The notes: a model not told the origin generated them from the sequence alone. A DNA stretch of 32,035 nt from a virus (IMGVR_UViG_2690316263_000015:1-32035), one strand, 5' to 3'. Counted from the first letter of the stretch, positions 1,781-32,035 are shown. Numbers and translations: made by a program.

Positions 1781-2590
1781 ATGAATAATCTGATGGTCAT
1801 TGATGGTATTGAAGTTCGTCGTGATGCTTATGGGCGTTACAGCCTGAACGATCTGCATCGTGCAGCAGTAGCATCTGGTGCAAATGCCAGAACCAAGGAG
1901 CCAGGAAAGTTTCTTTCCAGCCAACAAACTGTTGAACTTGTTCATGAATTGACCAACACCCAGAATTTGGGTGTTGACCCGGTGAGTGTGATTCATGGGG
2001 GAAATGAACGGGGAACTTATGTCTGCAAGGAACTGGTGTATGCCTATGCAATGTGGATCAGCCCGTCATTCCATCTGAAGGTGATCCGTACTTTCGATAT
2101 GGTAACCAGCGCACCGGAAAAATTATCCGGGCAGGCTGCTGACAAGATGCAGGCTGGAGTGATTCTGCTGGACTTTATGCGCCGGGAGTTAAATCTGTCT
2201 AACTCATCAGTGCTTGGTGCCTGTCAGAAACTTCAGGAGGCTGTTGGCTTACCGAATCTGGCACCGCGCTATGCCATTGATGCTCCTGCTGATGCACACG
2301 ATGGCTCAAGTCGCCCGACACTGTCACTGAGTGCACTGCTGAAACAGTATGGTATCCGCCTGACGGCTAATCAGGCATATCACCAGATGGTGAAGCTGGG
2401 GATCGTCGAGCAGCGTGAACGATACAGCCGTACCGCGATTAACAACATCAAAAAATTCTGGTCGCTGACAGCGAAAGGTTGCATGTTCGGCAAGAACATC
2501 ACCAGTCCCGCAAATCCGCGCGAGACGCAGCCGCATTTCTTCGAATCCCGATTCCCTGAGCTGTTAAAGCTGCTCGATACCGTTCATTGA
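1781..2590 (+). CDS. KilA-N domain protein (antirepressor-like)
   Basis: ATG 1781 preceded by AAGGAG. N-terminal MNNLMVIDGIEVR ... GTYVCKELVYAYAMWISPSFHLKVI is a KilA-N DNA-binding domain signature. Confidence 0.65.
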   Translation: MNNLMVIDGIEVRRDAYGRYSLNDLHRAAVASGANARTKEPGKFLSSQQTVELVHELTNTQNLGVDPVSVIHGGNERGTYVCKELVYAYAMWISPSFHLKVIRTFDMVTSAPEKLSGQAADKMQAGVILLDFMRRELNLSNSSVLGACQKLQEAVGLPNLAPRYAIDAPADAHDGSSRPTLSLSALLKQYGIRLTANQAYHQMVKLGIVEQRERYSRTAINNIKKFWSLTAKGCMFGKNITSPANPRETQPHFFESRFPELLKLLDTVH

Positions 2591-2591
2591 G

Positions 2592-3587
2592 GTGACCGTG
2601 AGAGCACTACTGACCCCTGAAATTGCCCCGCGTATGGGGATCGTATTGTTCAGGCCAGGTTCAGAGCTGATGCCCCTGTTTATGCAGGGGCGTGTCCTGC
2701 TGGAGCCTGAGCCGGAACGTTACTCATCTTTCGCCAGTGGTGCCGTTCCGGCGGCATCACAACCGCTGGCGGATGATCCTGCCGTTCGGGCCGTGTTCCG
2801 CAATGAGGCAGTGATCCGTCGTGCTGGTGGCGTGGAATGTCTTGAAAGCTGGTTACTTCGTGAAAAAGGCTGCCAGTGGCCTCATTCCGACTGGCACAGC
2901 GAGAACATGACCACAATGCGACACGCTCCGGGCGCAATCCGTCTGTGCTGGCACTGCGATAACCAGCTGCGCGATCAGTTCACGGAACGGCTGGAATCAA
3001 TGGCAACGGATAACTGTGCCCGCTGGGTGTTGTCTGTTGTGCGTCGGGATCTCGGTTTTGATGACAGTCACGTTGTGACAATGCCGGAACTGTGCTGGTG
3101 GCTGATTCGTAATGATCTGGCGGATGCCTTACCGGAAAGTGCAGCCCGTAAGGCACTGAGATTACCGAAGCCTGTTGTGCCATCTGTCACCCGGGAAAGT
3201 GACCTTGTGCCTTCGGTTCCTGCCACCAGCATCATCCAGGATAAAGCAAAAAAGGTGCTGGCGCTGAAAGTGGATCCGGAGTCGCCGGAGTCTTTTATGT
3301 TACGCCCAAAACGTCGCCGCTGGGTTAATGAAAAGTACACGCGCTGGGTTAAGACACAGCCGTGTGCATGTTGTGGAAAGCCCGCTGATGATCCCCACCA
3401 CCTGATAGGTCACGGTCAGGGTGGAATGGGAACAAAAGCGCATGACCTCTTTGTGTTGCCTTTGTGCAGAAAGCATCACGACGAGCTGCATGCGGATACC
3501 GTGGCATTTGAAGAGAAGTATGGCTCCCAGCTGGAGCTGATATTTCGTTTTATCGATCGTGCGCTGGCAATAGGCGTACTGGCGTAA
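2592..3587 (+). CDS. DUF968 (YdfU-like) protein with C-terminal Cys/His metal-binding motif
   Basis: 331-aa ORF; C-terminus CACCGKPADDPHHLIGHG ... LCRKHHDELH resembles DUF968 proteins found upstream of Q in lambdoid prophages. Start ambiguous (GTG 2592 or GTG 2598 after GAGGTG). Confidence 0.55.
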   Translation: MTVRALLTPEIAPRMGIVLFRPGSELMPLFMQGRVLLEPEPERYSSFASGAVPAASQPLADDPAVRAVFRNEAVIRRAGGVECLESWLLREKGCQWPHSDWHSENMTTMRHAPGAIRLCWHCDNQLRDQFTERLESMATDNCARWVLSVVRRDLGFDDSHVVTMPELCWWLIRNDLADALPESAARKALRLPKPVVPSVTRESDLVPSVPATSIIQDKAKKVLALKVDPESPESFMLRPKRRRWVNEKYTRWVKTQPCACCGKPADDPHHLIGHGQGGMGTKAHDLFVLPLCRKHHDELHADTVAFEEKYGSQLELIFRFIDRALAIGVLA

Positions 3588-3600
3588 GTGGAGAACGAGC

Positions 3601-4353
3601 ATGAACCTTGAAGCCTTACCGAAATATTACTCCCCAAAATCTCCAAAATTGAGCGATGACGCACCGACGACAGGCTCTGGTGGTTTAACAATTACGGATG
3701 TAATGGCTGCGCAGGGGATGGTGCAGTCGAAAGCACCGCTTGGGTTTGCCTTATTCCTGGCAAAAGTTGGTGTTCAGGATCCTCAATTTGCGATTGAAGG
3801 TCTGCTCAATTACGCGATGGCACTGGATAACCCGACATTGAACAAATTGAGTGAAGAAACCCGGTTACAGATCATCCCTTACCTTGTGAATTTTGCCTTT
3901 GCTGATTATTCCAGGTCTGCGGCAAGTAAGGCTCGCTGTGAGCATTGTGCTGGTACTGGATTTCATAATGTATTGCGCGAAGTGGTGAAACACTCCAGAA
4001 GCGGGGAATCTGTTATCAAGGAAGAGTGGGTGAAGGAACTATGTCAGCATTGTCATGGTAAGGGAGAAGTCAGCACAGCGTGCAGAGGGTGTAAGGGTAA
4101 AGGTATTGTCCTGGATGAAAAAAGGACCCGGCTTCATGGCACGCCTGTTTATAAGATTTGTGGGCGTTGCAATGGAAACCGGTTTAGCCGTTTACCAACC
4201 ACACTGGCGCGGCATCATGTCCAGAAGCTGGTACCAGACCTGACAGATTATCAGTGGTACAAAGGATATGCAGATGTCATTGATAAACTGGTTACAAAGT
4301 GCTGGCAGGAAGAAGCATATGCTGAGGCGCAATTAAGAAAAGTGACGAGATAA
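3601..4353 (+). CDS. antitermination protein Q-like late-gene regulator
   Basis: ATG 3601 after GGAGAA. 250 aa with paired Cys motifs (CEHCAGTG ... CQHCHGKG ... CRGCKGKG ... CGRCNG) as in Q-family antiterminators; followed by a promoter plus terminator pair. Confidence 0.7.
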   Translation: MNLEALPKYYSPKSPKLSDDAPTTGSGGLTITDVMAAQGMVQSKAPLGFALFLAKVGVQDPQFAIEGLLNYAMALDNPTLNKLSEETRLQIIPYLVNFAFADYSRSAASKARCEHCAGTGFHNVLREVVKHSRSGESVIKEEWVKELCQHCHGKGEVSTACRGCKGKGIVLDEKRTRLHGTPVYKICGRCNGNRFSRLPTTLARHHVQKLVPDLTDYQWYKGYADVIDKLVTKCWQEEAYAEAQLRKVTR

Positions 4354-4384
4354 ATGATTTTCGCCGAAGATGGCGACATAATGC

Positions 4385-4413
4385 TTGCATTTTTCAAAAA
4401 ATATGGATAAGAT
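4385..4413 (+). promoter_or_regulatory. putative Q-dependent late promoter (PR'-like)
   Basis: TTGCAT (4385-4390), 17-nt spacer, TAAGAT (4408-4413), about 30 nt downstream of the Q stop and about 45 nt upstream of an intrinsic terminator. The arrangement mimics lambda PR'/tR'. Confidence 0.35.
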
Positions 4414-4458
4414 TTTTCCAACGATGGGCTTTGTATGTCTACCGTTGATAAGATTTAA

Positions 4459-4486
4459 GAACCCGCCACTGAGCGGGTTTTTTTAT
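4459..4486 (+). terminator. intrinsic terminator (tR'-like)
   Basis: ACCCGC-cactga-GCGGGT stem-loop followed by a T7-8 run (aacccgccactgagcgggttttttta). Confidence 0.6.
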
Positions 4487-4606
4487 GCCTGAAAAACGGT
4501 ACAGGACGTTAAACGCGCTGGTGGTTGCGAATATTGGTCTTTCGGCTTGTATTTTTGTAAATCGATATATACTTATCTTGTGACCAGTAATGTCAGGGCA
4601 ATTGAT

Positions 4607-5350
4607 ATGAATGAAGCTTGTTCTGTTGTTTTTGTTCATTCCCCGTTTGTTGTGCTCTTTGAAGGAAAAGAGCTCTCTCTGGAAAGTGGTAGTGCACTTC
4701 TTGTCAGGGGGGGAGCTGGATCGTTATTGCCCTTTTCGGAATGTTTTCGGCGAATAAGTCTCAGTGAATCGACAATTATCCGTTACCTGTTGTGTGGAGA
4801 CGAAAAACAGGATGTAGTTTTAGTCCGGCAAATACCACGATATCTTTGCGTGAGTTTTCCCAAGGCAGAATTGATGGGCATCCTGATTGATTATCTTTGT
4901 GAGGAAAAGATTCATACGGACAATTTAGCGGAAATGCTTTCCTTTTCGTGTCTGGCGTTTTTCTCATCAGAGAAAATGTTTTCGTCGTTTCTGACCGCGT
5001 GTATTGGCAATATTAGTGACAGGCTTAGTGCATTGTTTCGTACGGACATTGCAGCAAACTGGACTCTGAGAGATGTGTCTTCGCGGTTATGTATCAGTGA
5101 AAGTTTGTTAAAAAAAAGACTGAAAGAAGAAGGCACCTGTTTCAGTGAGTTGTTGCTTACAGAGAGAATGAGAATGGCAGCAATGCTGTTGAATCAATCT
5201 CGTTGCGCCATCAACAGAATCGCTGCTCAGTGTGGCTATAATTTTACATCTTATTTTATCAGCGTATTCAGGAGTTATTTTGGTGTTACACCGGCAGGTT
5301 ACAGGATGGCTGCATTCAATGAGATGAGTTTAAGTGTTACTCAAGAATAA
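4607..5350 (+). CDS. AraC-family transcriptional regulator, AppY/EnvY-like (moron)
   Basis: ATG 4607. C-terminal double helix-turn-helix (WTLRDVSSRLCISESLLKKRLKEEGTCFSELLLTERMRMAAMLL ... AAQCGYNFTSYFISVFRSYFGVTPAGY); the N-terminal CSVVF motif recalls AppY. Gene is visibly AT-rich relative to neighbours and followed by its own terminator. Confidence 0.8.
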   Translation: MNEACSVVFVHSPFVVLFEGKELSLESGSALLVRGGAGSLLPFSECFRRISLSESTIIRYLLCGDEKQDVVLVRQIPRYLCVSFPKAELMGILIDYLCEEKIHTDNLAEMLSFSCLAFFSSEKMFSSFLTACIGNISDRLSALFRTDIAANWTLRDVSSRLCISESLLKKRLKEEGTCFSELLLTERMRMAAMLLNQSRCAINRIAAQCGYNFTSYFISVFRSYFGVTPAGYRMAAFNEMSLSVTQE

Positions 5351-8018: not shown

Positions 8019-8060
8019 CCGACGGTGAGAGCAGAATATTTTTTAGAGGAGCGAAATTCT

Positions 8061-8411
8061 ATGCCATCACAAATCCCTCGTGCATGCCGTAAGCGAGGCT
8101 GTGCAGGCACAACGACGGACAGTTCTGGCTACTGCGATAAGCATCGCGGCGAAGGTTGGACACAACATCAACGCGGACTGAGCCGCCACCAGCGTGGCTA
8201 TGGCTCGAAATGGGATGCCATACGTGCGCGCATACTGAAGCGTGATAATCATTTGTGTCAGAACTGCCTGCGCAATGGGAGAGCCGTTGAAGCCAGAACT
8301 GTGGACCACATCATTCCGAAAGCGCATGGCGGTACGGATGCAGACGGTAATCTGCAGAGCCTGTGCTGGCCATGCCACAAGGCGAAGACGGCCCGTGAAC
8401 GGCTTAAGTGA
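8061..8411 (+). CDS. HNH endonuclease (packaging-associated)
   Basis: ATG 8061 after GAGGAG. Cys pairs (CRKRGCAG, CDKH) plus HNH core (VDHIIPKAHGG ... GNLQSLCWPCH); sits directly upstream of terminase small subunit, as in HK97-type packaging modules. Confidence 0.8.
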   Translation: MPSQIPRACRKRGCAGTTTDSSGYCDKHRGEGWTQHQRGLSRHQRGYGSKWDAIRARILKRDNHLCQNCLRNGRAVEARTVDHIIPKAHGGTDADGNLQSLCWPCHKAKTARERLK

Positions 8412-8535
8412 TAATGATTCTCAACTGCCAGAGGGGAGGGCAGGTCAAATCCCTGTGACCTGACGTCTTCCGGACTGCCCGCCCCATCGTTTTTTTATAC
8501 CCGCGAAAAATGAAATTTAACCAGGAGTGCCGCAT

Positions 8536-9030
8536 ATGGCTGGAACGGCGGGGCGTTCCGGGCGTCGCCCCAAGCCAACGGCGCGCAAGGTGCTGGCCGG
8601 AAACCCCGGCAAGCGAGCCCTGAATAAAGATGAACCTGTTTTTACGCCCATCAAAGGTGTTGAGCCACCGGAGTGGTTCGCTGAAGAAGATCTCCCTCTC
8701 GCCACGACCATGTGGCAACTGACAACCAAAGAACTCTGCGGTCAGGGCCTGCTGTGCGTGACTGACCTTGCGGTGCTTGAGCGGTGGTGTGTGGCCTATG
8801 AGTTCTGGCGGCGTGCCGTGAAAAATATTGCCAGACAGGGCAACACCATCACTGGTGCAATGGGCGGCAGGGTCAAAAATCCGGAGCTGACCGCCAAAAA
8901 AGAACAGGAGTCCGAGATGAGCAGCACGGGGGCAATGCTCGGACTCGACCCCAGCAGCCGCCAGCGTCTGATTGGCCTGGCGGGGCAGAAGAAAGCCACT
9001 AACCCGTTTCTGAAAATCATCGAGTCATGA
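8536..9030 (+). CDS. terminase small subunit (P27-family type)
   Basis: ATG 8536. N-terminal [30 protein letters not shown] is characteristic of P27-family small terminase subunits; overlaps the large subunit start (ATGA). Confidence 0.8.
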
Positions 9031-10760
9031 GCCGGAAATCTTACCCCAACGTAAATGCTGCCAATCAGTATGCCCGTGATGTCGTGCGCGGAAAGATTGT
9101 GGCCTGCCAGTTTGTGATTCAGGCCTGCCAGCGCCATCTTGATGACCTGATGGCGGAAAAAAGTAAGTCGTTTCGTTACCGCTTCGACAAGGACCTGGCT
9201 GAACGGGCCGCCAAATTTATTCAGCTGTTGCCGCACACCAAGGGTGAGTGGGCATTTAAGAGGATGCCCATCACGCTGGAGCCGTGGCAGCTCTTTGTGA
9301 TCTGCTGCGCGTTTGGCTGGGTCAATAAAGGCTCCCGGCTGCGCCGCTTCCGTGAGGTGTATACCGAAATCCCCCGTAAGAACGGCAAATCAGCAATCTC
9401 TGCCGGTGTTGCCCTGTATTGTTTTGCCTGTGATAACGAGTTTGGCGCGGAAGTGTATTCCGGTGCCACGACAGAGAAACAGGCGTGGGAAGTCTTTCGC
9501 CCGGCGCGACTGATGTGTAAACGCACACCCATGCTGACGGAAGCGTTCGGGATTGAGGTTAACGCCTCAAACATGAACCGTCCGGAGGATGGCGCGCGGT
9601 TTGAACCGCTGATCGGTAACCCCGGTGATGGTTCATCACCCCACTGTGCGGTGGTGGATGAATATCACGAGCACGCCACCGATGCGCTTTATACCACGAT
9701 GCTTACCGGGATGGGGGCGCGACGTCAGCCACTGATGTGGGCCATCACCACCGCCGGGTACAACATTGAGGGGCCGTGCTACGACAAGCGGCGGGAAGTT
9801 ATCGAGATGCTCAACGGTTCGGTACCCAACGATGAACTGTTCGGGATCATCTATACCGTTGACGAAGGCGATGACTGGACCGACCCGCAGGTGCTGGAAA
9901 AAGCCAACCCGAATATTGGCGTGTCGGTTTATCGCGAATTTTTGTTAAGTCAGCAGCAGCGTGCGAAAAATAACGCCCGTCTGGCAAACGTCTTTAAAAC
10001 AAAACACCTCAATATCTGGGTGTCGGCGCGTTCGGCGTATTTCAACCTGGTGAGCTGGCAGAGCTGCGAGGATAAATCACTGACCCTTGAGCAGTTCGAG
10101 GGGCAGCCGTGCATTCTGGCCTTTGACCTGGCGCGTAAGCTGGATATGAACAGCATGGCGCGACTTTATACCCGCGAGATTGACGGTAAAACGCATTACT
10201 ACAGTGTGGCCCCGCGTTTCTGGGTACCGTATGACACGGTGTACAGCGTCGAGAAAAATGAAGATCGCCGGACAGCCGAACGCTTTCAGAAATGGGTGGA
10301 AATGGGCGTTCTGACTGTTACCGCTGGTGCGGAGGTGGATTATCGCTACATCCTCGAGGAGGCCAAAGCGGCGAACAAAATCAGCCCGGTCAGTGAGTCA
10401 CCCATCGACCCCTTCGGGGCGACCGGGCTGTCGCATGACCTTGCTGATGAAGACCTGAACCCCATCACCATCATTCAGAACTACACCAACATGTCCGATC
10501 CGATGAAAGAGCTGGAAGCGGCGATTGAATCGGGGCGCTTTCATCATGACGGCAATCCCATCATGACCTGGTGTATCGGCAACGTGGTCGGCAAAACCAT
10601 TCCGGGTAACGATGATGTGGTGAAGCCTGTCAAGGAGCAGGCGGAAAACAAAATCGATGGTGCGGTTGCACTGATTATGGCGATCGGTCGGGCAATGCTC
10701 AAAGAACCCGACGATTTCCTCTCATCTCTTGATCCGGACGATGCTCTCTTAATTCTATGA
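9027..10760 (+). CDS. terminase large subunit
   Basis: 577 aa. ATPase region ([25 protein letters not shown], Walker-A-like) and C-terminal nuclease region; position and size typical of HK97-type TerL. Confidence 0.9.
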
Positions 10761-10918
10761 AATCACTAATTGCTGATGTTATCGGGTTGGCTGGTTTTGG
10801 CCTGCTTACGTGCGGGTTTTACCTGCAGTTTGGTATGGCTCCGGCTCTGATGCTGTCCGGCGGTTTACTGCTGGTGGGCGCACTGGCTATGGCCAGAAGG
10901 GGGACGCGTGCTGCTTGA
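10757..10918 (+). CDS. small hydrophobic protein (53 aa), hypothetical
   Basis: ATG 10757 overlaps the TerL stop. Translation [53 protein letters not shown]. Ends just inside the portal gene start. Not in ORF track. Confidence 0.25.
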
Positions 10919-12134
10919 TGCTCTGTTCAGAAGTAAATCACTGGAGAATCCTTCCACCCCGATAACCGGGGATGCCGTTGATACTGATGGGCTGTTCCGG
11001 GCAGACGTTTATGTCAGTCCTGAAACTGCGATGAAACTGGCTGCGGTGTATTCCTGTATCTATGTCCTGTCTTCCAGCCTTGCCCAGATGCCGTTGCATG
11101 TTATGCGCAGGCACAATGGGAAGGTTGAGCCCGCACGCGATCATCCGGCGTTTTATCTGGTTCATGATGAGCCCAATACCTGGCAAACCAGTTACAAATG
11201 GCGCGAACTGAAGCAACGTCACATCCTTGGCTGGGGGAATGGGTATACCTGGGTGAAACGTAATCGTCGCGGTGAAGTCATATCCCTGGATTGCTGTATG
11301 CCGTGGGAAACGACGCTGATGAATACTGGTGGCCGATACACCTACGGTTTGTACAACGAATATGGGGCGTTTGCGATCAGCCCCGACGATATGATCCACA
11401 TCCGTGCGCTGGGTAATAATCAGAAGATGGGGCTGAGTCCGATTATGCAACATGCCGAAACAATAGGCATGGGGATGAGCGGTCAGAAATACACAGAAAG
11501 CTTCTTCAGCGGTAATGCCCGTCCGGCGGGGATAGTATCCGTTAAAAGCGGACTCAATAAGGACAGCTGGGGCTGGCTTAAAGATCAGTGGCAGAAGGCA
11601 TCGCAGGCGTTACGCAGCCAGGAAAACAAAACCATGCTGCTGCCAGCCGATCTGGATTACAAGGCACTGACTGTGTCGCCAGTTGACGCTCAGATCATTG
11701 ACATGATGAAACTGAACCGTTCAATGATTGCCGGTATTTTCAATATTCCTGCGCACATGATTAATGACCTCGAAAAAGCCACCTTCTCCAATATTTCTGC
11801 GCAGGCGATTCAGTTTGTCCGCTACACGATGATGCCGTGGGTGACGAACTGGGAGCAGGAGCTTAACCGTCGCTTGTTTACCCGCGCTGAGTTAGCCGCC
11901 GGGTATTACGTCAGGTTCAATCTGACGGGGCTTTTACGCGGAACTCCGCAGGAGCGCGCGCAATTCTATCACTTCGCTATTACCGATGGATGGATGAGCC
12001 GTAATGAGGCCCGCGCATTCGAGGATATGAATCCGGTTGAAGGGCTGGATGAGATGCTGGTAAGCGTGAATGCTGCTAACCCGGCAGGAGATTTTAAGCC
12101 CCCAAAAAATGATGAGGGAAAAACCAATGAATGA
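10908..12134 (+). CDS. portal protein (HK97 family)
   Basis: GTG 10908 after AAGGGGG. 408 aa; size and position (after TerL, before prohead protease) fit HK97-family portal; C-terminal acidic tail. Confidence 0.85.
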   Translation: MLLDALFRSKSLENPSTPITGDAVDTDGLFRADVYVSPETAMKLAAVYSCIYVLSSSLAQMPLHVMRRHNGKVEPARDHPAFYLVHDEPNTWQTSYKWRELKQRHILGWGNGYTWVKRNRRGEVISLDCCMPWETTLMNTGGRYTYGLYNEYGAFAISPDDMIHIRALGNNQKMGLSPIMQHAETIGMGMSGQKYTESFFSGNARPAGIVSVKSGLNKDSWGWLKDQWQKASQALRSQENKTMLLPADLDYKALTVSPVDAQIIDMMKLNRSMIAGIFNIPAHMINDLEKATFSNISAQAIQFVRYTMMPWVTNWEQELNRRLFTRAELAAGYYVRFNLTGLLRGTPQERAQFYHFAITDGWMSRNEARAFEDMNPVEGLDEMLVSVNAANPAGDFKPPKNDEGKTNE

Positions 12135-25231: not shown

Positions 25232-26059
25232 ATGCATCGTATAGACACGAAAACCGCGCAGAAGGATAAGTTCGGCGCGGGTAAGAACGGTTTTACCCGT
25301 GGTAACCCCCAGACTGGCACGCCTGCCACCGATCTGGATGATGACTACTTTGACATGTTGCAGGAAGAACTTTGTAGCGTGGTGGAGGCATCCGGTGCCA
25401 GTCTGGAGAAGGCGCGGCACGACCAGCTGCTTACCGCGCTTCGTGCGCTGCTGTTAAGCCGCAAGAATCCGTTTGGCGATATCAAATCGGATGGCACGGT
25501 GAAAACGGCTCTCGAAAACCTTGGTTTGGGAGAAGGTTCAGCATTACCCGTTGGCGTGCCTGTTCCGTGGCCTTCCGCCACTCCGCCAACAGGCTGGCTG
25601 AAATGCAACGGTGCCGCTTTTTCTGCAGAAGAATACCCGGAACTGGCAAAGGCTTACCCGACCAATAAATTGCCTGATTTACGCGGTGAATTTATTCGTG
25701 GCTGGGATGATGGACGTGGAGTGGATGCGGGGCGAGCCTTGCTAAGTCTTCAGGATGACTCTTTTGAAGCTCACAGACATGAGTCCTTTTTTTACGCGGG
25801 TATTTCACGCAATGAAACACCATTAAAAAATCTTCCAAGTTCAGACGAGATGCTGACTTTAAGTTCCACAACTAATGCCTTGTCCCCGGACAGTATTGAT
25901 GCCACCAATTCGTTAATTGGTAATGATGATTACAACTGTCTGATTGAAGGAAATAAAAATAACAAACGAACGGCAACGGGGTTGAGTACCAGTATTGTCG
26001 GTGCAGCAGAGACACGCCCACGTAATATTTCATTTAATTACATTGTGAGGGCTGCATGA
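25232..26059 (+). CDS. tail fibre protein: constant N-terminal part fused to the currently expressed variable C-terminal part with a tail-collar-like receptor-binding region
   Basis: ATG 25232 after GGAG. N-terminus [29 protein letters not shown] typical of Mu S / side-tail-fibre N-termini; collar-like motif [33 protein letters not shown]; crossover site inside the gene at 25509-25534. Confidence 0.8.
25509..25534. repeat. left recombination site of invertible segment (hix/gix-like, 26 bp)
   Basis: CTCTCGAAAACC-TT-GGTTTGGGAGAA resembles Hin/Gin crossover sites and is an imperfect inverted repeat of 27459-27484. Confidence 0.6.
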
Positions 26060-26661
26060 TGTATAACGCCATCTTAAATAATAAATTTATTGCCACAAAG
26101 GCAGGAGAGATTACCGTTTATAACTATGACAGTGAGACACGGGAGTATATTTCTGCATCAATTGAATATCTTGCTGTGGGTGTCGGTATCCCCGCATATT
26201 CCTGTTTAGATGCTCCTGGCACACATAAGGTTGGTTATGCAATCTGCCGTTCGGCAGATTTAAACTCATGGGAATATGTGCCAGACCATCGCGGTGAAGT
26301 TGTCTATAACACCGAAACGGGAGAATCAAAAGAAATCACAGCTCCGTGTGATTACCCTGAAAATACAACCACTATCGTCCCGTTAACGCCATACGATAAA
26401 TGGGATGGTGAGAAATGGGTGACAGATACTGAGGCACAGCATAGTGCCGCAGTAGACGCGGCAGAAGCACAGCGCCAGTCGCTGATTGATGCTGCAATGG
26501 CTTCCATCAGTCTGATTCAACTGAAATTACAGGCCGGGCGGAAGCTGACGCAGGCAGAAACAACCCGACTTAACGCCGTGCTGGATTACATTGACGCGGT
26601 GACGGTAACAGATACCAGCACCGCGCCGGATGTCATCTGGCCTGAACTGCCGGAGGCGTAG
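26056..26661 (+). CDS. tail fibre assembly protein (Tfa)
   Basis: 201 aa, ATGA-coupled to the fibre gene; the C-terminal region ([62 protein letters not shown]) is a typical Tfa chaperone domain. Confidence 0.75.
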
Positions 26662-27076
26662 GCCATTCAATATCGGGGGCTGTTGAAGTATCAACACGCA
26701 TCAGCAGCACACGGTATTTCTTCCATTGGGTGAGAGTTGAAGTTTCTTCATCAGTTGCAATGCCCGCATCAACAGCATCCTGACGCCAGGATATTTCACT
26801 GTCAGCTTTTGCACGAAATGTGGCTTTCATGTTTTCTGCATCTGATATTTTCTGTTCTGGTGAAAGCGGCGGCTCATCAACCCATGCAAGGGCCCCTGAA
26901 ACCATTCCCAGCATTTTTCCTGTTGGCTTATTTCCCCCATTAAATCTGACAGCATCCTCATCGCTGATTTCAATACCATCCTGCGGCCATGTCCCCTCCT
27001 TGATATAACTTTCGTATAGCGCTGCGTTGTAGATTGCATTTTCGGAAGGGCTGTAAACACTTTTAACTTTATTCAT
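26633..27076 (-). CDS. alternative tail fibre assembly protein (Tfa')
   Basis: 147 aa on the minus strand; the C-terminal region (SPEQKISDAENMKATFRAKADSEISWRQDAVDAGIATDEETSTLTQWKKYRVLLMRVD) parallels the Tfa chaperone domain. SD GGGAGA upstream of ATG. Convergent with tfa, 3' ends overlapping 26633-26661. Confidence 0.7.
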   Translation of the reverse strand: MNKVKSVYSPSENAIYNAALYESYIKEGTWPQDGIEISDEDAVRFNGGNKPTGKMLGMVSGALAWVDEPPLSPEQKISDAENMKATFRAKADSEISWRQDAVDAGIATDEETSTLTQWKKYRVLLMRVDTSTAPDIEWPTPPAVQAR

Positions 27077-27080
27077 TCTG

Positions 27081-27458
27081 TTATCTCCCTTTCGCTATAT
27101 AGCAAAGATTAAACCCACCGCTACCTGACATACGGGCTGTAAAACCCGTTCTTGAAGTACCAGTTGAGTTAACTCCATAAGCAGGCATGGTTGTTGGAGA
27201 AAGCAGAGACTCCTGGATATCTGCCATTGTCAGTGTAATTGATTCGACCCGCGCGGGGAAAGGTAGCGGGAAAACAACATTCGTCCCTGTCTGTCCAACG
27301 GGGAAACCGAAAATACCCCATTGTGTAATTACCCCATCCGGCCCCTTACTCCATCCAGATTTAGGATTCGGCCAGTCTGCTGCTCCAGAGTGCCCCGTTG
27401 TAAAACTACTCATATCTGGTACTTGCCCGGTATCCGTTCCGACGTTCCTCGTTGCCGC
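27081..27458 (-). CDS. alternative promoterless tail-fibre C-terminal segment (Sv'-like), expressed only after inversion
   Basis: Minus-strand frame is open from the right crossover site to TAA (27081-27083), 4 nt before tfa'; it shares the crossover-encoded GLGE junction with the fibre gene. The N-terminal 'MMPFARY' part of the ORF-track call lies across the recombination site and is probably not coding. Confidence 0.6.
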   Translation of the reverse strand, partial: AATRNVGTDTGQVPDMSSFTTGHSGAADWPNPKSGWSKGPDGVITQWGIFGFPVGQTGTNVVFPLPFPARVESITLTMADIQESLLSPTTMPAYGVNSTGTSRTGFTARMSGSGGFNLCYIAKGR

Positions 27459-27484
27459 TTCTCCCAAACCAACGTTTATGAAAA
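27459..27484. repeat. right recombination site of invertible segment (hix/gix-like, inverted)
   Basis: Its reverse complement TTTTCATAAACG-TT-GGTTTGGGAGAA matches the left site over the GGTTTGGGAGAA half-site and the central TT. Confidence 0.6.
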
Positions 27485-27538
27485 TGCAGAAATAACGAGC
27501 AAATGGCATCATTCCTGCTTTTGTCAGGGGGATCTACC

Positions 27539-27667
27539 ATGCTTATTGGCTATGTACGCGTATCAACAAATGACCAGAACACAGATCTACAACGTAATGC
27601 GCTGAACTGTGCAGGATGCGAGCTGATTTTTGAAAACAAGATAAGCGGTACAAAGTCCGAGACCTAG
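27539..27667 (+). pseudogene. Pin/Gin/Hin-family serine DNA invertase, truncated after about 40 codons
   Basis: MLIGYVRVSTNDQNTDLQRNALNCAGCELIFENKISGT matches the invertase N-terminus nearly residue for residue (catalytic Ser in VRVSTNDQ), then diverges (KSET) and stops at TAG 27665-27667. The remainder of the gene is absent from the window. Confidence 0.8.
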
Positions 27668-27714
27668 GGCTGACATTGCTGTTCTTGATGCAAATTAAAG
27701 TATTTAATAGTGAG

Positions 27715-27742
27715 TAGCGGCCTTACTAAGGTAAGGCCGCTA
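27715..27742. other. perfect 12-bp stem hairpin at the prophage/islet junction (possible bidirectional terminator or recombination scar)
   Basis: TAGCGGCCTTAC-taag-GTAAGGCCGCTA; lies between the invertase remnant and the 3' end of the minus-strand DUF262 gene; no clean T-run on either side. Confidence 0.35.
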
Positions 27743-27762
27743 TAATCATTTTATTAATTGCA

Positions 27763-29712
27763 TTAATCGTGTTTTGGCCATACTTTCAATGCAATTTCCC
27801 CCAACTTTTTACCCCGCTCCAGGATTTCATCCTCATCCCATTTATCCTTAACTATAAGTGGAATGTTCAGTCGTAGATTGGTGTGGACGATGAGAGCATC
27901 ACGTTTTTTCAGAAATACAGCATTCTGAACAGAACGGTTTACGCTAAGGTTAAGCAAAGTTAGATTTCCCAAAGTAGCTATCGCTTGTTGCCGTTTCCTT
28001 ACCAGTAGCTGTTCAGGGGTAAGATCGGTTCCAGACAGAACAATTTGGTTCAATACCGTAGCATCTGAATTTGTCACCATACGACCATTTTCGAGAGGCC
28101 AACAGGAATACCAACTTTGGGGCATAAGATGATCGATATCGAGATTAGAAAGATTTGGAACATCAGGCTTTTCGGTCTTCACTTGGCGACAAAGTTCTCT
28201 TTCAAGTTCCGTTAACATTGAGCGCATTTTCGGTGCGTCGAGCCTGCCAGGATAAAGTGGAGCATTGATGCAAGCGTTGAGAAATTCTGAGTCACCAGGC
28301 CAACGTGAGGCTTCGCCATTTAAGTTATTGAGGATATTACGTAACTCAACACTGGAAATTTCCGTTTTAGCCAAGTGCCGCAATACATTCATAAATACAT
28401 TGTTGTAATTCTTTGGCGTCAGGCCACATACGGCTCTTCGTACTACGTAGGAGACAAGATCATTATACATGACTGCTTTCTCATCATCAGCGATGTTAGC
28501 TATCGAAATGAACAAAGCAAGCGGATAAAGTGTCGTCACATCATAGTCTGCGATGCGATATCCAAAGTGTGAGATGGGGGTTGTGCCAAAACCATCAACC
28601 AATTCTTTATATTGTAATGCATATTGTTTGAGGCGCTTTACTTGCAGATCTGCTCGTTGTGAAGACAAGTCCTTACTTACATAATCACGATACTCATTGT
28701 AAAGACGAGACAGATCAATTTCACGCTGCCTTTCTGATTGCAATGTCGCATGTACTAGCCACTCCATGCGTGGTTTATTAATACGTCCACGGCGTTGTTT
28801 TTCCGACCAGTATTTATCTTCAAAGCTCTTCCACTCATTTTCATATAATTCAATAGCATTAATATTTTCATGCTCTGCGCACATAAAGATATAGTTGCGA
28901 ATAAGATCCGTAGCATGAAGTTCCGCCCCTCGCCCATTTAATGTTTCAAAAATTATTTGGGCATCATCTTCAGCTTCGAGAAATATGCTTACCAGTTTCA
29001 GATCTGTTAAGACAGCCTCAATTAGAGCTACAGCATTTTCTTGTGGTGAGTGGTTTTCTATTTTAATCCATTTTATAAAGGCTTTAGTAAAAAAACATAA
29101 TGCTTCTAGTGATGGCGGGTGATTAAAACGCTTACGCAACGTACCATGCTGCGTGAAACTATCAGAGAATACGTCCCGGAGATCGTCAATCTTTTCAACA
29201 TTAAAACTTTGAATAAAATGAGTTTGATCCCGAAAAGTTGGCCACAGTTTGAAGCGTTCTACTTCTTTATTTCGCATTGTGTCTTCGTTTGAGTTTTTCA
29301 GGCAAGGCGAAATGAGAGCCTCTAAGCTGGAAAGATCCGTAGCACGTAATGCTAATCGGATGGATGCCAGAACATATTGAAGAGTGGTCAATCGTTGCTG
29401 ACCATCAATAATATGTATGGAATCTACACCTAATAATCCTTTTTTTGATTGAGGTTCCAGTACAACCGCACCAAGGAAATGGGGAGTTGGTTTTGTACCC
29501 GAGAGCCGGGATTGTGCTTTCTCTAGGATATCCTCCAGTAGAGCTGACCATTGGTCTTGCTGAGTCCATACATAGGCACGTTGATAGAATGGAACACAGT
29601 ATTGTCGGCGGTCTTGAAAAAGTTGTTGGACAGTTAGCGTCTCGGATTTCATGGTATACCTGTAAGCGACATTGTACAAAAGTGAGGAGTTAATCTGATT
29701 TAGAACAATCAT
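27763..29712 (-). CDS. DUF262-DUF1524 nuclease, GmrSD-like (type IV modification-dependent restriction candidate)
   Basis: 649-aa minus-strand ORF. N-terminal DUF262 motifs (FYQRAYVWTQ, IIDGQQRLTTL, FETLNGRGAELHATDLIRNY) and C-terminal DUF1524 His-Me finger (DIDHLMPQSW, GNLTLLNLSVNRSVQN). Likely true start at internal ATG 29652 (MKSETL). Gene is AT-rich. Confidence 0.8.
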   Translation of the reverse strand: MIVLNQINSSLLYNVAYRYTMKSETLTVQQLFQDRRQYCVPFYQRAYVWTQQDQWSALLEDILEKAQSRLSGTKPTPHFLGAVVLEPQSKKGLLGVDSIHIIDGQQRLTTLQYVLASIRLALRATDLSSLEALISPCLKNSNEDTMRNKEVERFKLWPTFRDQTHFIQSFNVEKIDDLRDVFSDSFTQHGTLRKRFNHPPSLEALCFFTKAFIKWIKIENHSPQENAVALIEAVLTDLKLVSIFLEAEDDAQIIFETLNGRGAELHATDLIRNYIFMCAEHENINAIELYENEWKSFEDKYWSEKQRRGRINKPRMEWLVHATLQSERQREIDLSRLYNEYRDYVSKDLSSQRADLQVKRLKQYALQYKELVDGFGTTPISHFGYRIADYDVTTLYPLALFISIANIADDEKAVMYNDLVSYVVRRAVCGLTPKNYNNVFMNVLRHLAKTEISSVELRNILNNLNGEASRWPGDSEFLNACINAPLYPGRLDAPKMRSMLTELERELCRQVKTEKPDVPNLSNLDIDHLMPQSWYSCWPLENGRMVTNSDATVLNQIVLSGTDLTPEQLLVRKRQQAIATLGNLTLLNLSVNRSVQNAVFLKKRDALIVHTNLRLNIPLIVKDKWDEDEILERGKKLGEIALKVWPKHD

Positions 29713-30495
29713 TTTATTCTGCTATGATACAACGTATTTGTTACCGGTTAAGTAAAAAACGCGTCTGAACGCTGACGTTTTAGGGCTTTACTGGTTATTC
29801 TTTCTTATCTCTTCATCATCCCATCGGCATCCTGTCGAGGTTGTTGACTTGTTGTTATTTATTTTGTCTAGGCGCTGTTTAATTATTATTGATAGAACTG
29901 ATGGTGAGAGGTGATTGAAATTGTAGGCACGTCGTTTGCAAGGACGTGCTACGACTGGCTGGTGAACTTCCGATAGTGCGAGTATTGAATGATTTCCTAC
30001 GTGCTAACTAGTGAACAAACAACTCTTCAGTAGACTCTCAGGTATCATTCAGAGTTTCCTGAACGAAAGTTTTAGCTCAATCTTTATCTGCAGTATGTCT
30101 AACTGAAAAACTATCGTTGCTGGTGGCTTTTACGATCATCTCCACATCGTCATAACGCTTGCCAATGTGTTGGGTTAACTCTTCCTTTAACGCGTCCACA
30201 GCGCCATTTGGCATTTGGTCATTTTGTCTTTGGTTATGGAGATCTCAATACGCATAACACTTCTTTTGTACTGCGTTTGTAGACAGTATTATTCTTATCT
30301 GTGTAAATAAACAGTATCAAGACTTCGTTTTAGCTGCATAAGAAAAAAGAGATGGATACATTCGGAAAGATTTTGATGGTGGTAGGCTAAGTGAATAGCC
30401 TAAAGGTGTTTTACCCCAATTATTCCCCGGTATTTCTCCGCATAAAAAACAATCATAAAAAACCAGCCATAATAGGCTGGTTCTTAAGGGATTTT

Positions 30496-30544
30496 TGGTC
30501 GCACGAGAGGATTTGAACCTCCGACCCCCGACACCCCATGATGG
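30496..30544 (-). other. orphan 3' fragment of a tRNA-Pro gene (about 49 nt, T-arm and acceptor 3' strand with CCA); not a complete tRNA
   Basis: Minus-strand reading CATCATGGGGTGTCGGGGGTCGGAGGTTCAAATCCTCTCGTGCGACCA matches, from recall, the 3' part of enterobacterial tRNA-Pro (proM-like). No matching 5' acceptor strand or D-arm upstream. Confidence 0.6.
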
Positions 30545-31465
30545 TTATGATAGACCGTAGTATTTTTTCAGAGCCGCTGTAGCTGCTTGAGTTGCAGCAG
30601 CTATTCCTATGCCCAAAGTACCATGGGCTGCTTTACTCGCAATATTTGCCAACCATTTACTAACAGATTGACCATATTCACCACGTTTGTTAGCTATCGG
30701 GCCATCTTCACCAATAGCAATTTCTAAATCGTTAACATCAGATTTAGGGAACCCCTGAGCTGAGAGAAACTCTTTTAATGACTCAGTGTCGTTTTTTACG
30801 ACGTGGTTATTCACAGAAAATGAGTTTTCATTTCCGAAGTTTATGACAGTATTGTCTCCAAAAATTGAGTTATGGAATAATGAAGACGTGTCGATATTTT
30901 TAAGTTTTTCTGTCATGTTTTTCTCATCTGGTATTTCAGAAACTTGATCAGAAAGTTCAAGTATAAAATCAAGTAGCCGTGACCTGACCTGAGTTAAGAT
31001 GGAAGTAAAGTTATGTAGTGCGATCTCTTTATAACAGCGTGTTAACTCATAGCCTTTATCGATACCTTTGCAGTACTTAACTAACGCGTAATCTAAAGGA
31101 ATTGGCTGCTGAAGAGCATGGCTATCACCAGCATTGGTTACTAGTTCTTCGATTTGACTGATTGAAAGCCTCACATTACTGGTTGTAGCATCTTCATAGT
31201 CATCTTCACTTAGATAGCCAATCGGTAACGGAAAAGCTCTATATAGGCGAACGCCGTTGTTCAGATCTGCAAGAATTCTTGTGCCAACAATTCTATAATC
31301 TGGAAGGGAAACTGAATCAGGATAACCGTTTATCTCATGATTTACCCATGCAGCAAGCTCCTTTTTCCCGATAGAGAAAAGAAGGATCTTCGTTTTTATG
31401 AGAGCATTTGTTGTGCCTTCATCACCAGTACTTAGTATCTGAATGATTTCTTGCAGTTGGTTCAT
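30545..31465 (-). CDS. abortive-infection-like protein (AbiTii-type N-terminal domain suspected)
   Basis: 306-aa minus-strand ORF. N-terminus (LQEIIQILSTGDEGTTNALIKTKILLFSIGKKELAAWVNHEINGY) resembles AbiTii-domain proteins as I recall them; C-terminus has an Ala/Gly-rich amphipathic tail. AT-rich. Family call unverified. Confidence 0.45.
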   Translation of the reverse strand: MNQLQEIIQILSTGDEGTTNALIKTKILLFSIGKKELAAWVNHEINGYPDSVSLPDYRIVGTRILADLNNGVRLYRAFPLPIGYLSEDDYEDATTSNVRLSISQIEELVTNAGDSHALQQPIPLDYALVKYCKGIDKGYELTRCYKEIALHNFTSILTQVRSRLLDFILELSDQVSEIPDEKNMTEKLKNIDTSSLFHNSIFGDNTVINFGNENSFSVNNHVVKNDTESLKEFLSAQGFPKSDVNDLEIAIGEDGPIANKRGEYGQSVSKWLANIASKAAHGTLGIGIAAATQAATAALKKYYGLS

Positions 31466-31479
31466 ATGTCTTATCCCAT

Positions 31480-31505
31480 AAAAAAAGCCCGCATTAGCGG
31501 GCTTT
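31480..31505 (-). terminator. intrinsic terminator on the minus strand downstream of ssrA
   Basis: Minus-strand GCCCGC-taat-GCGGGC followed by T7; about 130 nt beyond the tmRNA 3' CCA and 14 nt before the Abi-like ATG. Confidence 0.55.
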
Positions 31506-31633
31506 CATGTAACTAAAGAGCCGCGGCTCCTTTGCGTATCCTTTTTTGTCCCCTCACCGTCTGGTCGGTGTCCTGCTGAGACTGCTAACTTCCTGTTTTT
31601 ATTGGTGTTGTCCTTACACCGTCCAATCATGAT

Positions 31634-31996
31634 TGGTGGAGCTGGCGGGAGTTGAACCCGCGTCCGAAATTCCTACATCCTCGGTACTACATGCTTAGTC
31701 AGTCTTTACATTCGCTTGCCAGCTGCGGACGGACACGCCACTAACAAACTAGCCTGATTAAGTTTTAACGCTTCAACCCCAGGCAGGGCTTCCACGCGAT
31801 CTCTTTTGGGTTTGACCTCTCTTGATCCCCGTCCTAAGAGCGGAGGCTAGGGAGAGAGGGCTCTAAGCAGGTTATTAAGCTGCTAAAGCGTAGTTTTCGT
31901 CGTTTGCGACTATTTTTTGCGGCTTTTTACGAGGCCAACCGCCCCTCGGCATGCACCTTGGGTTTCGCAAATCCCGTCGAATCCAGAATCAGCCCC
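31634..31996 (-). ncRNA. ssrA: tmRNA (transfer-messenger RNA, SsrA)
   Basis: Reverse complement reads GGGGCTGATTCTGGATTCGACGGG ... GGACGCGGGTTCAACTCCCGCCAGCTCCACCA, 363 nt, with the tag reading frame GCAAACGACGAAAACTACGCTTTAGCAGCTTAA (ANDENYALAA) at 31875-31907. Confidence 0.95.
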
Positions 31997-32035
31997 AATG
32001 TGTAAAGGTAAGTATACCAGATTTATGAGCGCCAT

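Follow-up and report, generated by a model that had tools for sequence, protein, structure and literature searches.

Orphan 3' fragments of tRNA genes are most often the distal direct repeats of islands integrated by tyrosine integrases that target tRNA or tmRNA genes. One such fragment, derived from tRNA-Pro, lies in the window analyzed here, a 32,035-nt stretch of E. coli DNA that covers the smpB-proximal end of a lambdoid prophage. It is found inside the prophage, 1.1 kb from the junction with ssrA, the gene for tmRNA. How did a piece of a tRNA-Pro gene come to lie at this position, and which element does it delimit? The original prediction, made from the sequence of the window, regarded the fragment as a trace of a tRNA-targeting integrase, and proposed either that the islet was assembled from an element once integrated at tRNA-Pro or that the fragment marks an internal module boundary. 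In our reading, the fragment is probably a vestigial half of a proL-type attachment site, carried by a mosaic phage that now uses ssrA.

Identity and extent of the tRNA-Pro fragment

The features of the window to which the text refers are as follows.

1-30404, strand not assigned: body of a lambdoid prophage, the integrase end of which is beyond the window
27763-29712, minus strand: GmrSD, 649 aa, with GmrSD_N and GmrSD_C domains (type IV restriction enzyme; DUF262 in RefSeq)
30010-30255, minus strand: DinI-like pseudogene with a 1-nt frameshift deletion (RefSeq: DinI-like, frameshifted; alignment)
30405-30432, minus strand: GGGG(A/T)A direct repeats (CGGGGAATAATTGGGGTAAAAC), recognized by motif conservation
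30458-30485, minus strand: intrinsic-terminator-like hairpin and T run (AAGAACCAGCCTATTATGGCTGGTTTTT) of the proL type, from a terminator scan
30488-30495, minus strand: the 8 nt past the CCA, AAAATCCC, identical to the sequence downstream of chromosomal proL; end of the att identity block
30496-30544, minus strand: 3' part of proL, tRNA-Pro(GGG), positions 27-76, from alignment with proL, proK, and proM
30545-31465, minus strand: AbiTii-domain gene, 306 aa (open reading frame; PF18864, E = 3e-33)
31466-31633, minus strand: copy, carried by the phage, of the sequence downstream of ssrA, including a hairpin and T run at about 31480-31505; P side of an ssrA-type att site
31634-31996, minus strand: ssrA (tmRNA), 295.8 bits

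The reverse complement of positions 30496-30544 is CCATCATGGGGTGTCGGGGGTCGGAGGTTCAAATCCTCTCGTGCGACCA. It contains the anticodon arm, variable loop, T arm, 3' strand of the acceptor stem, and CCA, and its predicted coordinates were exact. Alignment with the three tRNA-Pro genes of E. coli K-12 revealed that the fragment is specific to proL (anticodon GGG), with identity starting at position 27 and running to the CCA. A total of 48 of 50 positions and 8 flanking bases matched proL (blastn E = 3e-17), and the only differences were the substitution G29>A and the loss of one C from the acceptor strand. Mismatches to proK and proM were spread across the anticodon arm, the T-loop, and the acceptor strand. 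Past the identity block, homology to proL continued at approximately 87-90% through the terminator hairpin to about position 30457. The fragment is the core, or identity block, of a proL-type attachment site.

The 5' half of the tRNA is missing, as had been predicted. Neither ARAGORN nor Rfam at gathering thresholds found a tRNA gene at the fragment, and relaxing the Rfam cutoff to E ≤ 10 for positions 30350-30700 gave none either. The TAA stop of the AbiTii gene (30545-30547) directly abuts the fragment, so that Abi coding sequence stands where the 5' half of a functional tRNA-Pro cloverleaf would be; this 5' flank had no similarity to a tRNA 5' half. The tmRNA at 31634-31996 (minus strand) was the sole structured RNA gene in the window. 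In the E. coli genome N61, which carries the same fragment, a candidate degenerate full-length tRNA-Pro extending 5' of the fragment was rejected, since its score was reached by 672 of 5,000 shuffled sequences.

A 32-nt core probe and the 50-mer each matched the window once, and neither matched any of 100 shuffles. A second copy was found neither in the window, in agreement with the original prediction, nor in the homologous 50-kb locus of E. coli WP2-S18-ESBL-07. It is scarcely conceivable that the fragment is a chance resemblance to proL or a complete but degenerate tRNA gene. The extent of the match, its E value, and the empty shuffles speak against chance; the lack of a cloverleaf in the ARAGORN and Infernal searches and the Abi coding sequence in the 5' flank speak against a degenerate tRNA.

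The ssrA-integrated prophage and its cargo slot

The prophage body in the window comprises replication and early genes, lysis genes, a P27-type terminase, an HK97-type head, a contractile tail, and an invertible tail-fibre segment. The best whole-prophage match among E. coli genomes covered 80% of it. The right end is more closely matched: positions 27458-32035 are 99.65% identical to E. coli WP2-S18-ESBL-07, and the same right end is present in CFT073. In WP2-S18-ESBL-07, the order from smpB is ssrA, a spacer of about 150 nt, AbiTii, the proL fragment, DinI, and GmrSD, followed by the phage body with tail, head, lysis, and early genes, an integrase, and two hypothetical genes. At the far end is a 32-nt copy of the ssrA 3' end, beyond which another integrase island begins. 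One lambdoid prophage thus spans the 41.8 kb from ssrA to the 32-nt repeat, and no long direct repeat other than that of ssrA spans it. The prophage of E. coli AR436 has the same layout, with a lambda-type tail and a 37-nt ssrA repeat.

The integrases of these two relatives are 95% identical to each other. The WP2-S18-ESBL-07 enzyme shares 93% identity with its counterpart in Citrobacter phage phiNP and 87% with the one in the free phage LLS, in whose record an attP is annotated beside int as a 'tmRNA pseudogene'. Because the relatives have ssrA repeats and an integrase of a family with a tmRNA attP, the resident element is an ssrA-integrated prophage. Both ends of such a prophage are seen in WP2-S18-ESBL-07 and AR436; the window shows the ssrA end. 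Since the window stops before the integrase end, its integrase type and far repeat are taken from these relatives, and it would have an ssrA-type integrase and an ssrA repeat at the same far end.

The 32- and 37-nt repeats of the relatives place the att core used by the resident prophage in the 3'-terminal 32-37 nt of ssrA (31634-31670), a sequence with no second copy in the window. In an empty-site strain, the native spacer between ssrA and ypjA matches the approximately 150 nt after ssrA in the window at about 94.5% identity. In K-12 JM109, this flank sequence is present at the distal junction, where it follows an incomplete copy of ssrA beside ypjA. The ssrA cassette and the proL cassette are alike in that each mimics the 3' end of a host gene together with its terminator. 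With regard to the proL fragment, the paired direct repeats of an attL and an attR were not found: the fragment is single in the window and in WP2-S18-ESBL-07, and it is the ssrA repeats of 32-37 nt that bound the relatives. The proposal that the fragment is a duplication bounding the Abi islet was thus not borne out, as the fragment has no partner and the ssrA 3'-end repeats enclose a whole lambdoid prophage.

The phages with which this prophage is best compared are LLS (PQ299149), phiNP (OR565852), the cryptic prophage CP-1639 (AJ304858), and PhiR12_4. The integrase of the window's relatives is 69-93% identical to those of phiNP, LLS, and PhiR12_4. As in the known ssrA phages, the attP includes a 3' piece of ssrA, an intact ssrA stands at the DinI end, and cargo lies between the core and DinI. 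Unlike CP-1639 and LLS, prophages of the window's type have an additional, foreign half-site between the cargo and DinI. A proL fragment is missing from both of these phages and is thus dispensable for integration into ssrA.

AbiTii is the cargo between the ssrA-type att cassette and the proL fragment in the window, CFT073, and AR436. The slot holds a DpnII/MboI-like nuclease, a small hypothetical open reading frame, and a GIY-YIG protein in the E. coli genomes N61 and 729, five other, unrelated genes in LLS, and no gene in CP-1639. The phage body beyond the fragment is variable too, with a Mu-like tail and GmrSD in some prophages and a lambda-like tail and a DEAD/DEAH helicase in others. The fragment is the seam between the DinI end and the variable defence-cargo slot, in accordance with the second option of the original prediction, an internal module boundary. 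The segment with Abi and the fragment may be packaged, as suggested by the geometry of the ssrA repeats and by a permuted arrangement in Enterobacter described below; a tblastn search of 50,697 deposited phage genomes, however, yielded no AbiTii homologue.

Several further observations were made on this part of the prophage. The variable interval from the ssrA-type att core to DinI or the proL fragment corresponds to 31466-31633 in the window, 2110-5000 in locus L007, and 8054-11100 in locus L015. The Abi start codon (31465) is about 15 nt past a GC-rich hairpin and T run (31466-31510) resembling the native ssrA terminator, and no sigma-70-like promoter was predicted on the minus strand between ssrA and Abi. 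Abi may be expressed by read-through from the highly expressed ssrA or from an unrecognised promoter. With GmrSD, encoded between DinI and the tail-fibre genes, this end of the prophage has two defence genes. The segment with tail-fibre and tail-fibre-assembly genes (25516-26692) is inverted relative to the otherwise collinear WP2-S18-ESBL-07 locus (L001 43546-44620), where a truncated, invertase-like gene annotated as 'recombinase family' is adjacent to it; it resembles an invertible host-range segment that is in the opposite state in the window. Next to the ssrA-type integrase of WP2-S18-ESBL-07 are two hypothetical genes of about 270 and 127 aa (L001 7389-8577). In E. coli CCUG 73778, distant homologues of these two genes adjoin a decayed recombinase gene at the distal proL junction (L010 3407-4547); the two genes are a conserved unit that travels with the integrase-proximal att arm.

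Relationship to proL-integrating phages

E. coli CCUG 73778 has a lambdoid prophage in proL. From yejM, the order is intact proL, a terminator like that of the window, GGGG(A/T)A repeats, a frameshifted DinI, and the phage body; at the far end, the integrase is followed by a distal proL fragment that adjoins a remnant of yejO. Both junctions contain the same 54-nt block, which begins with CATGGGG in the anticodon loop and ends with AAAATCCC. Between the fragment and DinI, the window and the proL-proximal junction of CCUG 73778 share approximately 98-99% identity. The CCUG 73778 integrase is 77% identical to those of the phages Eeyore (PP925821) and Flotzy (PP925827), and 19-21% identical to the ssrA type.

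In Eeyore and Flotzy, int is followed after about 140 nt by a 3' piece of proL in the same orientation, and the block identical to proL is 50 nt long. Next come a terminator of the proL type, the GGGG repeats, a UmuD-like gene, DinI, and tail fibres. This layout is the unintegrated attP arrangement, and it predicts the structure of the CCUG 73778 lysogen. In proL phages, int and the P' arm come first, then the 3' part of proL with its terminator, the P arm with its GGGG repeats, DinI, and the tail fibres; because of this order, intact proL adjoins DinI after integration. The window shares with Eeyore, Flotzy, and the CCUG 73778 prophage the same proL block in the same orientation to DinI, extending from the anticodon loop past the 3' end of the gene, and a P arm in which the terminator and the repeats lead to DinI. 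It differs from a proL-phage attP in that a cognate integrase and a P' arm are missing, Abi abuts the core, and the element is in ssrA. The Abi side of the fragment had no similarity to the P' arms of CCUG 73778, Eeyore, or Flotzy; no P' arm is recognisable there because the Abi reading frame abuts the core. In the relatives examined, a proL-type integrase was absent and only the ssrA type, about 20% identical to it, was found; the window itself does not include the integrase end. The search for a cognate integrase suggested by the original prediction therefore did not succeed. Its inference that such fragments are made by tRNA-targeting integrases, and that this one came from an element of a type that integrates at tRNA-Pro, is supported by the CCUG 73778 junctions and the Eeyore and Flotzy attP, which also specify the target as proL. 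The fragment itself goes with the DinI end of the prophage, being contiguous with the terminator, the arm repeats, and DinI, and neither with Abi nor with the ssrA locus.

On the DinI side, the terminator-like hairpin starts 10 nt after the CCA, on the Abi strand. The same terminator (AACCAGCC...GGCTGGTTTTT) is also located downstream of proL in many Enterobacteriaceae. No other minus-strand terminator was predicted by the terminator scan between the Abi stop and the DinI promoter region, and the predicted proL-type terminator probably ends Abi transcription. The GGGG(A/T)A motif is at a constant distance from the core in the window, CCUG 73778, Eeyore, Flotzy, Gifsy-2, and the Enterobacter and Pseudescherichia loci described below; the repeats may be the arm-type integrase binding sites of the proL-type P arm. 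The DinI-like gene is the last conserved gene of the lambdoid right arm.

Two side observations concern this gene. An identical 1-nt DinI frameshift is present in the window (about 30010-30255) and, in loci L006 (4293-4540) and L007 (5292-5509), in CCUG 73778 and N61, and a pseudogene allele is thus common to phages with different integration sites. Motifs resembling a LexA box (TACTGT...ACAG) are located upstream of the DinI-like gene.

These comparisons point to the following course of events. The core and P-arm half of the att site would have come from lambdoid phages that integrate into proL, tRNA-Pro(GGG). The window prophage would have retained the DinI-end module of such a phage, while the integration module was replaced by an ssrA-type integrase and a cassette with the ssrA 3' end and a copy of its downstream flank. 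The prophage would accordingly lie in ssrA, with ssrA 3'-end repeats on both flanks, and the old proL site would have been left behind without its own integrase or a recognisable P' arm. Module replacement may have occurred by recombination between two phages; alternatively, a proL phage may have integrated into an ssrA element, followed by a deletion between the two phage bodies. Both routes would give the same product. Because there is no recognisable P' arm and the relatives have no cognate integrase, the half-site is presumably inert for integration and excision of the prophage that carries it. Observed directly were the proL identity, the position of the fragment adjoining the DinI module, the integrase type and ssrA repeats of the relatives, and the attP arrangement of the free phages; the order of events, the assignment of the arm sites, the role of the terminator, and a far end like that of the relatives are inferred.

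Other elements resemble the fragment in part. As in the usual orphan tRNA repeats, it extends from the anticodon arm to the 3' end and has the orientation of the target gene; unlike them, it lacks both a partner copy and an intact tRNA in the vicinity, and it is internal to an element bounded by ssrA repeats. The right end of the Salmonella lambdoid prophage Gifsy-2 (NC_010393, 44260-44334; L013 1507-1581) has a proL piece from the T arm to the CCA, followed by a proL-type terminator and GGGG repeats, and no tRNA gene was detected at this piece. It is apparently another vestigial proL-type half-site, although it is shorter than that of the window, without the anticodon arm, and is in a different neighbourhood (the sseI side). 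Lambdoid prophages of E. coli carry short attB-like sequences (of yecE, ykgJ/ecpE, and ompW) near their ends, often several side by side, which are conserved among prophages and spread by recombination; these sites are occupied by other phages in a prophage-in-prophage configuration (Nakamura et al., 2021, PLoS Pathog, PMC8112680). The window likewise has a chromosome-like att sequence inside a prophage. The proL fragment differs from those sites in that a search of 5,426 complete E. coli genomes with the CCUG-type P' arm found no occupant and in that it leads into a P arm, making a hybrid phage/host junction and not a bare attB. No description of a proL relic in ssrA prophages was found in the searchable literature, which does not include the most relevant older paper, and nothing specific was found on proL integration sites or on the ssrA prophage of CFT073. 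The underlying biology, tyrosine integrases that target tRNA and tmRNA genes and ordinary lambdoid mosaicism, is already known.

At the chromosomal proL locus, the distal junction of CCUG 73778 (L010 2923-3120) joins about 150 nt of phage-side P' arm, via the proL fragment, to the native flank. Junctions of this type, at 96-97% identity, were found in at least 40 E. coli genomes, among them strains of ST131 and ST167, and remnants of proL-type elements are therefore common at proL.

Distribution, alternative explanations, and significance

Among 5,426 complete E. coli genomes, 30 had Abi and the fragment beside ssrA: 15 were of the window/CFT073 type and at least 16 were of a decayed type represented by AR436. 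The module of DinI and the fragment was present somewhere in 248 genomes of this set. As for the further copies that the original prediction recommended looking for, the genomes with the ssrA-adjacent fragment also have proL, and no other copy was found in them.

In the AR436 lineage, the fragment and DinI are about 70% identical to the window, whereas Abi is about 95% identical. As the divergence changes sharply exactly at the Abi stop, a recombination breakpoint can be placed there. Decay of the fragment and DinI in this lineage is as expected of an unused relic. The changes in AR436 (L002 19650-20053), with at least 16 similar genomes, are mostly G/C-to-A/T substitutions and deletions. The decayed copy still has a hairpin-like GGCCTATTATGGTTGC segment. 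Compensatory conservation of its T stem was considered and rejected, as column-by-column inspection revealed a register-shifted hairpin; the AR436 T stem is therefore not evidence of selection.

The composite of ssrA, Abi, and proL is not a one-off, since it is also found in Enterobacter and Pseudescherichia. In Enterobacter genomosp. O, the unit of ssrA core, spacer, Abi, proL fragment, terminator, and first arm repeats (30414-31648 in the window) is 88% identical; a P'-like sequence and only some 22 nt of ssrA come before it, in what appears to be an attP-like arrangement or a tandem-array permutation. In Pseudescherichia, Abi is 68% identical to that of the window, and its stop again abuts the fragment. 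The fragments are better matched than the genes next to them: identity is 49/49 (to proL, from CATGGGG onward) in Enterobacter and about 93% in Pseudescherichia, against 88% and 68% for the adjacent Abi. In Pseudescherichia, the fragment and terminator are 98.9% identical over 90 nt to proL of the same genome. This contrast suggests re-templating (conversion) against host proL, or continued or recent use, and not pure decay. The four bases 5' of CATGGGG are CCAT in the window and N61, CTGA in Enterobacter, CCGT in Pseudescherichia, and GTGA in a true attP; as they vary, the junction may have come from an attP or from a lysogen junction.

The exact phage-type junction 26-mer had no match in a search of one genome per species. 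A looser junction pattern matched 65 loci, of which 60 were scanned for tRNAs; 45 had an intact proL and 15 were orphans, and no tmRNA was detected within the 60 scanned 8-kb loci. As a separate observation, proL of Kosakonia, Mixta, and some other genera carries a paired anticodon-stem change, C28T and G42A (loci L021, L026, L030, L032, L037, L039, L048, L052, L056, and L068), and the orphan fragments L040 and L063 in such genomes keep the G42A allele (GTCAGG). These fragments could be used to test whether relics track the host proL allele.

The commonest origin of orphan tRNA 3' fragments is the displaced 3' end of the chromosomal gene, here the distal repeat left by an Abi islet or a prophage that entered via tRNA-Pro, and the 15 orphans among the 60 loci of other Enterobacteriaceae are presumably such repeats. 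For the window, this origin is very improbable. Neither a second copy nor an intact tRNA-Pro is present in the window or its 50-kb relative, the sequence downstream of the fragment is a phage P arm with DinI and not the chromosomal yejO-side flank, and the bounding repeats are ssrA 3' ends. Abi, the fragment, and the native proL flank were together in no E. coli genome, by which a variant with Abi as P'-side cargo of a proL-integrated element was also rejected. A phage integrated at the fragment was likewise dismissed, as the far end is an ssrA repeat and not a proL core, and the integrase is of the ssrA type. A more serious contender, to which we would give perhaps a quarter of our belief, is that the terminator is what is retained and the tRNA piece is its passenger. 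The terminator would serve as the 3' end of Abi and would insulate the tail-fibre end from antisense read-through. Its position 10 nt past the CCA on the Abi strand, where no other minus-strand terminator is predicted before the DinI promoter, fits this role, as do the Abi stop that abuts the fragment in E. coli, Enterobacter, and Pseudescherichia and the hairpin-like segment that persists even in AR436. In N61, however, the cargo gene is transcribed away from the fragment and the fragment is kept nonetheless. Retention of the terminator would also leave the origin of the fragment unexplained, and it complements an origin as a relic without replacing it.

The fragment might instead be a live secondary site, an 'attB inside a prophage' at which proL-specific phages of the Eeyore, Flotzy, or CCUG type integrate or their integrase swaps modules. 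This would account for the variation of cargo and phage bodies on both sides, with Abi or a nuclease and GIY-YIG protein on one side and DinI with GmrSD or DinI with an MsgA-like gene on the other. It agrees with an anticodon-arm core that is intact but for one base, with the better preservation of the fragment than its neighbours in Enterobacter and Pseudescherichia, and with the precedent of chromosomal attB-like sequences in E. coli prophages that are used by other phages (PMC8112680). Occupation by another phage was nevertheless not seen: a P'-core-P junction with the CCUG-type P' arm, the one P' type searched, was found in none of the 5,426 complete E. coli genomes, and a nested or tandem proL phage at the fragment was rejected because the reconstructed CCUG-type attP had no full-length match in them. 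Genomes with the ssrA-adjacent fragment have two proL-like places only, proL and the fragment, and the AR436 lineage lets the fragment decay. On this balance, we consider a live site unlikely, and a vestigial proL-type half-site in a phage that has switched to ssrA remains the preferred explanation. The initial observation on this locus was thus confirmed, and its interpretation was supported in part.

For the annotation of such loci, an orphan tRNA fragment near ssrA is here a poor guide to an island boundary. The true boundaries in the close relatives are ssrA repeats about 42 kb apart, and Abi is prophage cargo. The locus offers a clean, datable example of integration-module replacement, that is, attachment-site switching, in lambdoid phages, and the decayed (AR436-type) and well-kept (window and Enterobacter) versions of the seam allow comparison. 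The fragment also delimits a compact ssrA-adjacent slot with strain-specific anti-phage genes. Should the half-site be alive after all, which we doubt, it would frame, together with the ssrA cassette, a defence slot exchanged by recombination, or would be a landing pad for proL phages. It would then be kept matched to host proL through use, as in Pseudescherichia (98.9% over 90 nt). Some lambdoid phages would carry mimics of two target genes and could dock at, or receive partners of, two different RNA genes. If still recombinogenic, the fragment would be a tRNA-derived case of the 'attB-in-prophage' mechanism that builds prophage clusters.
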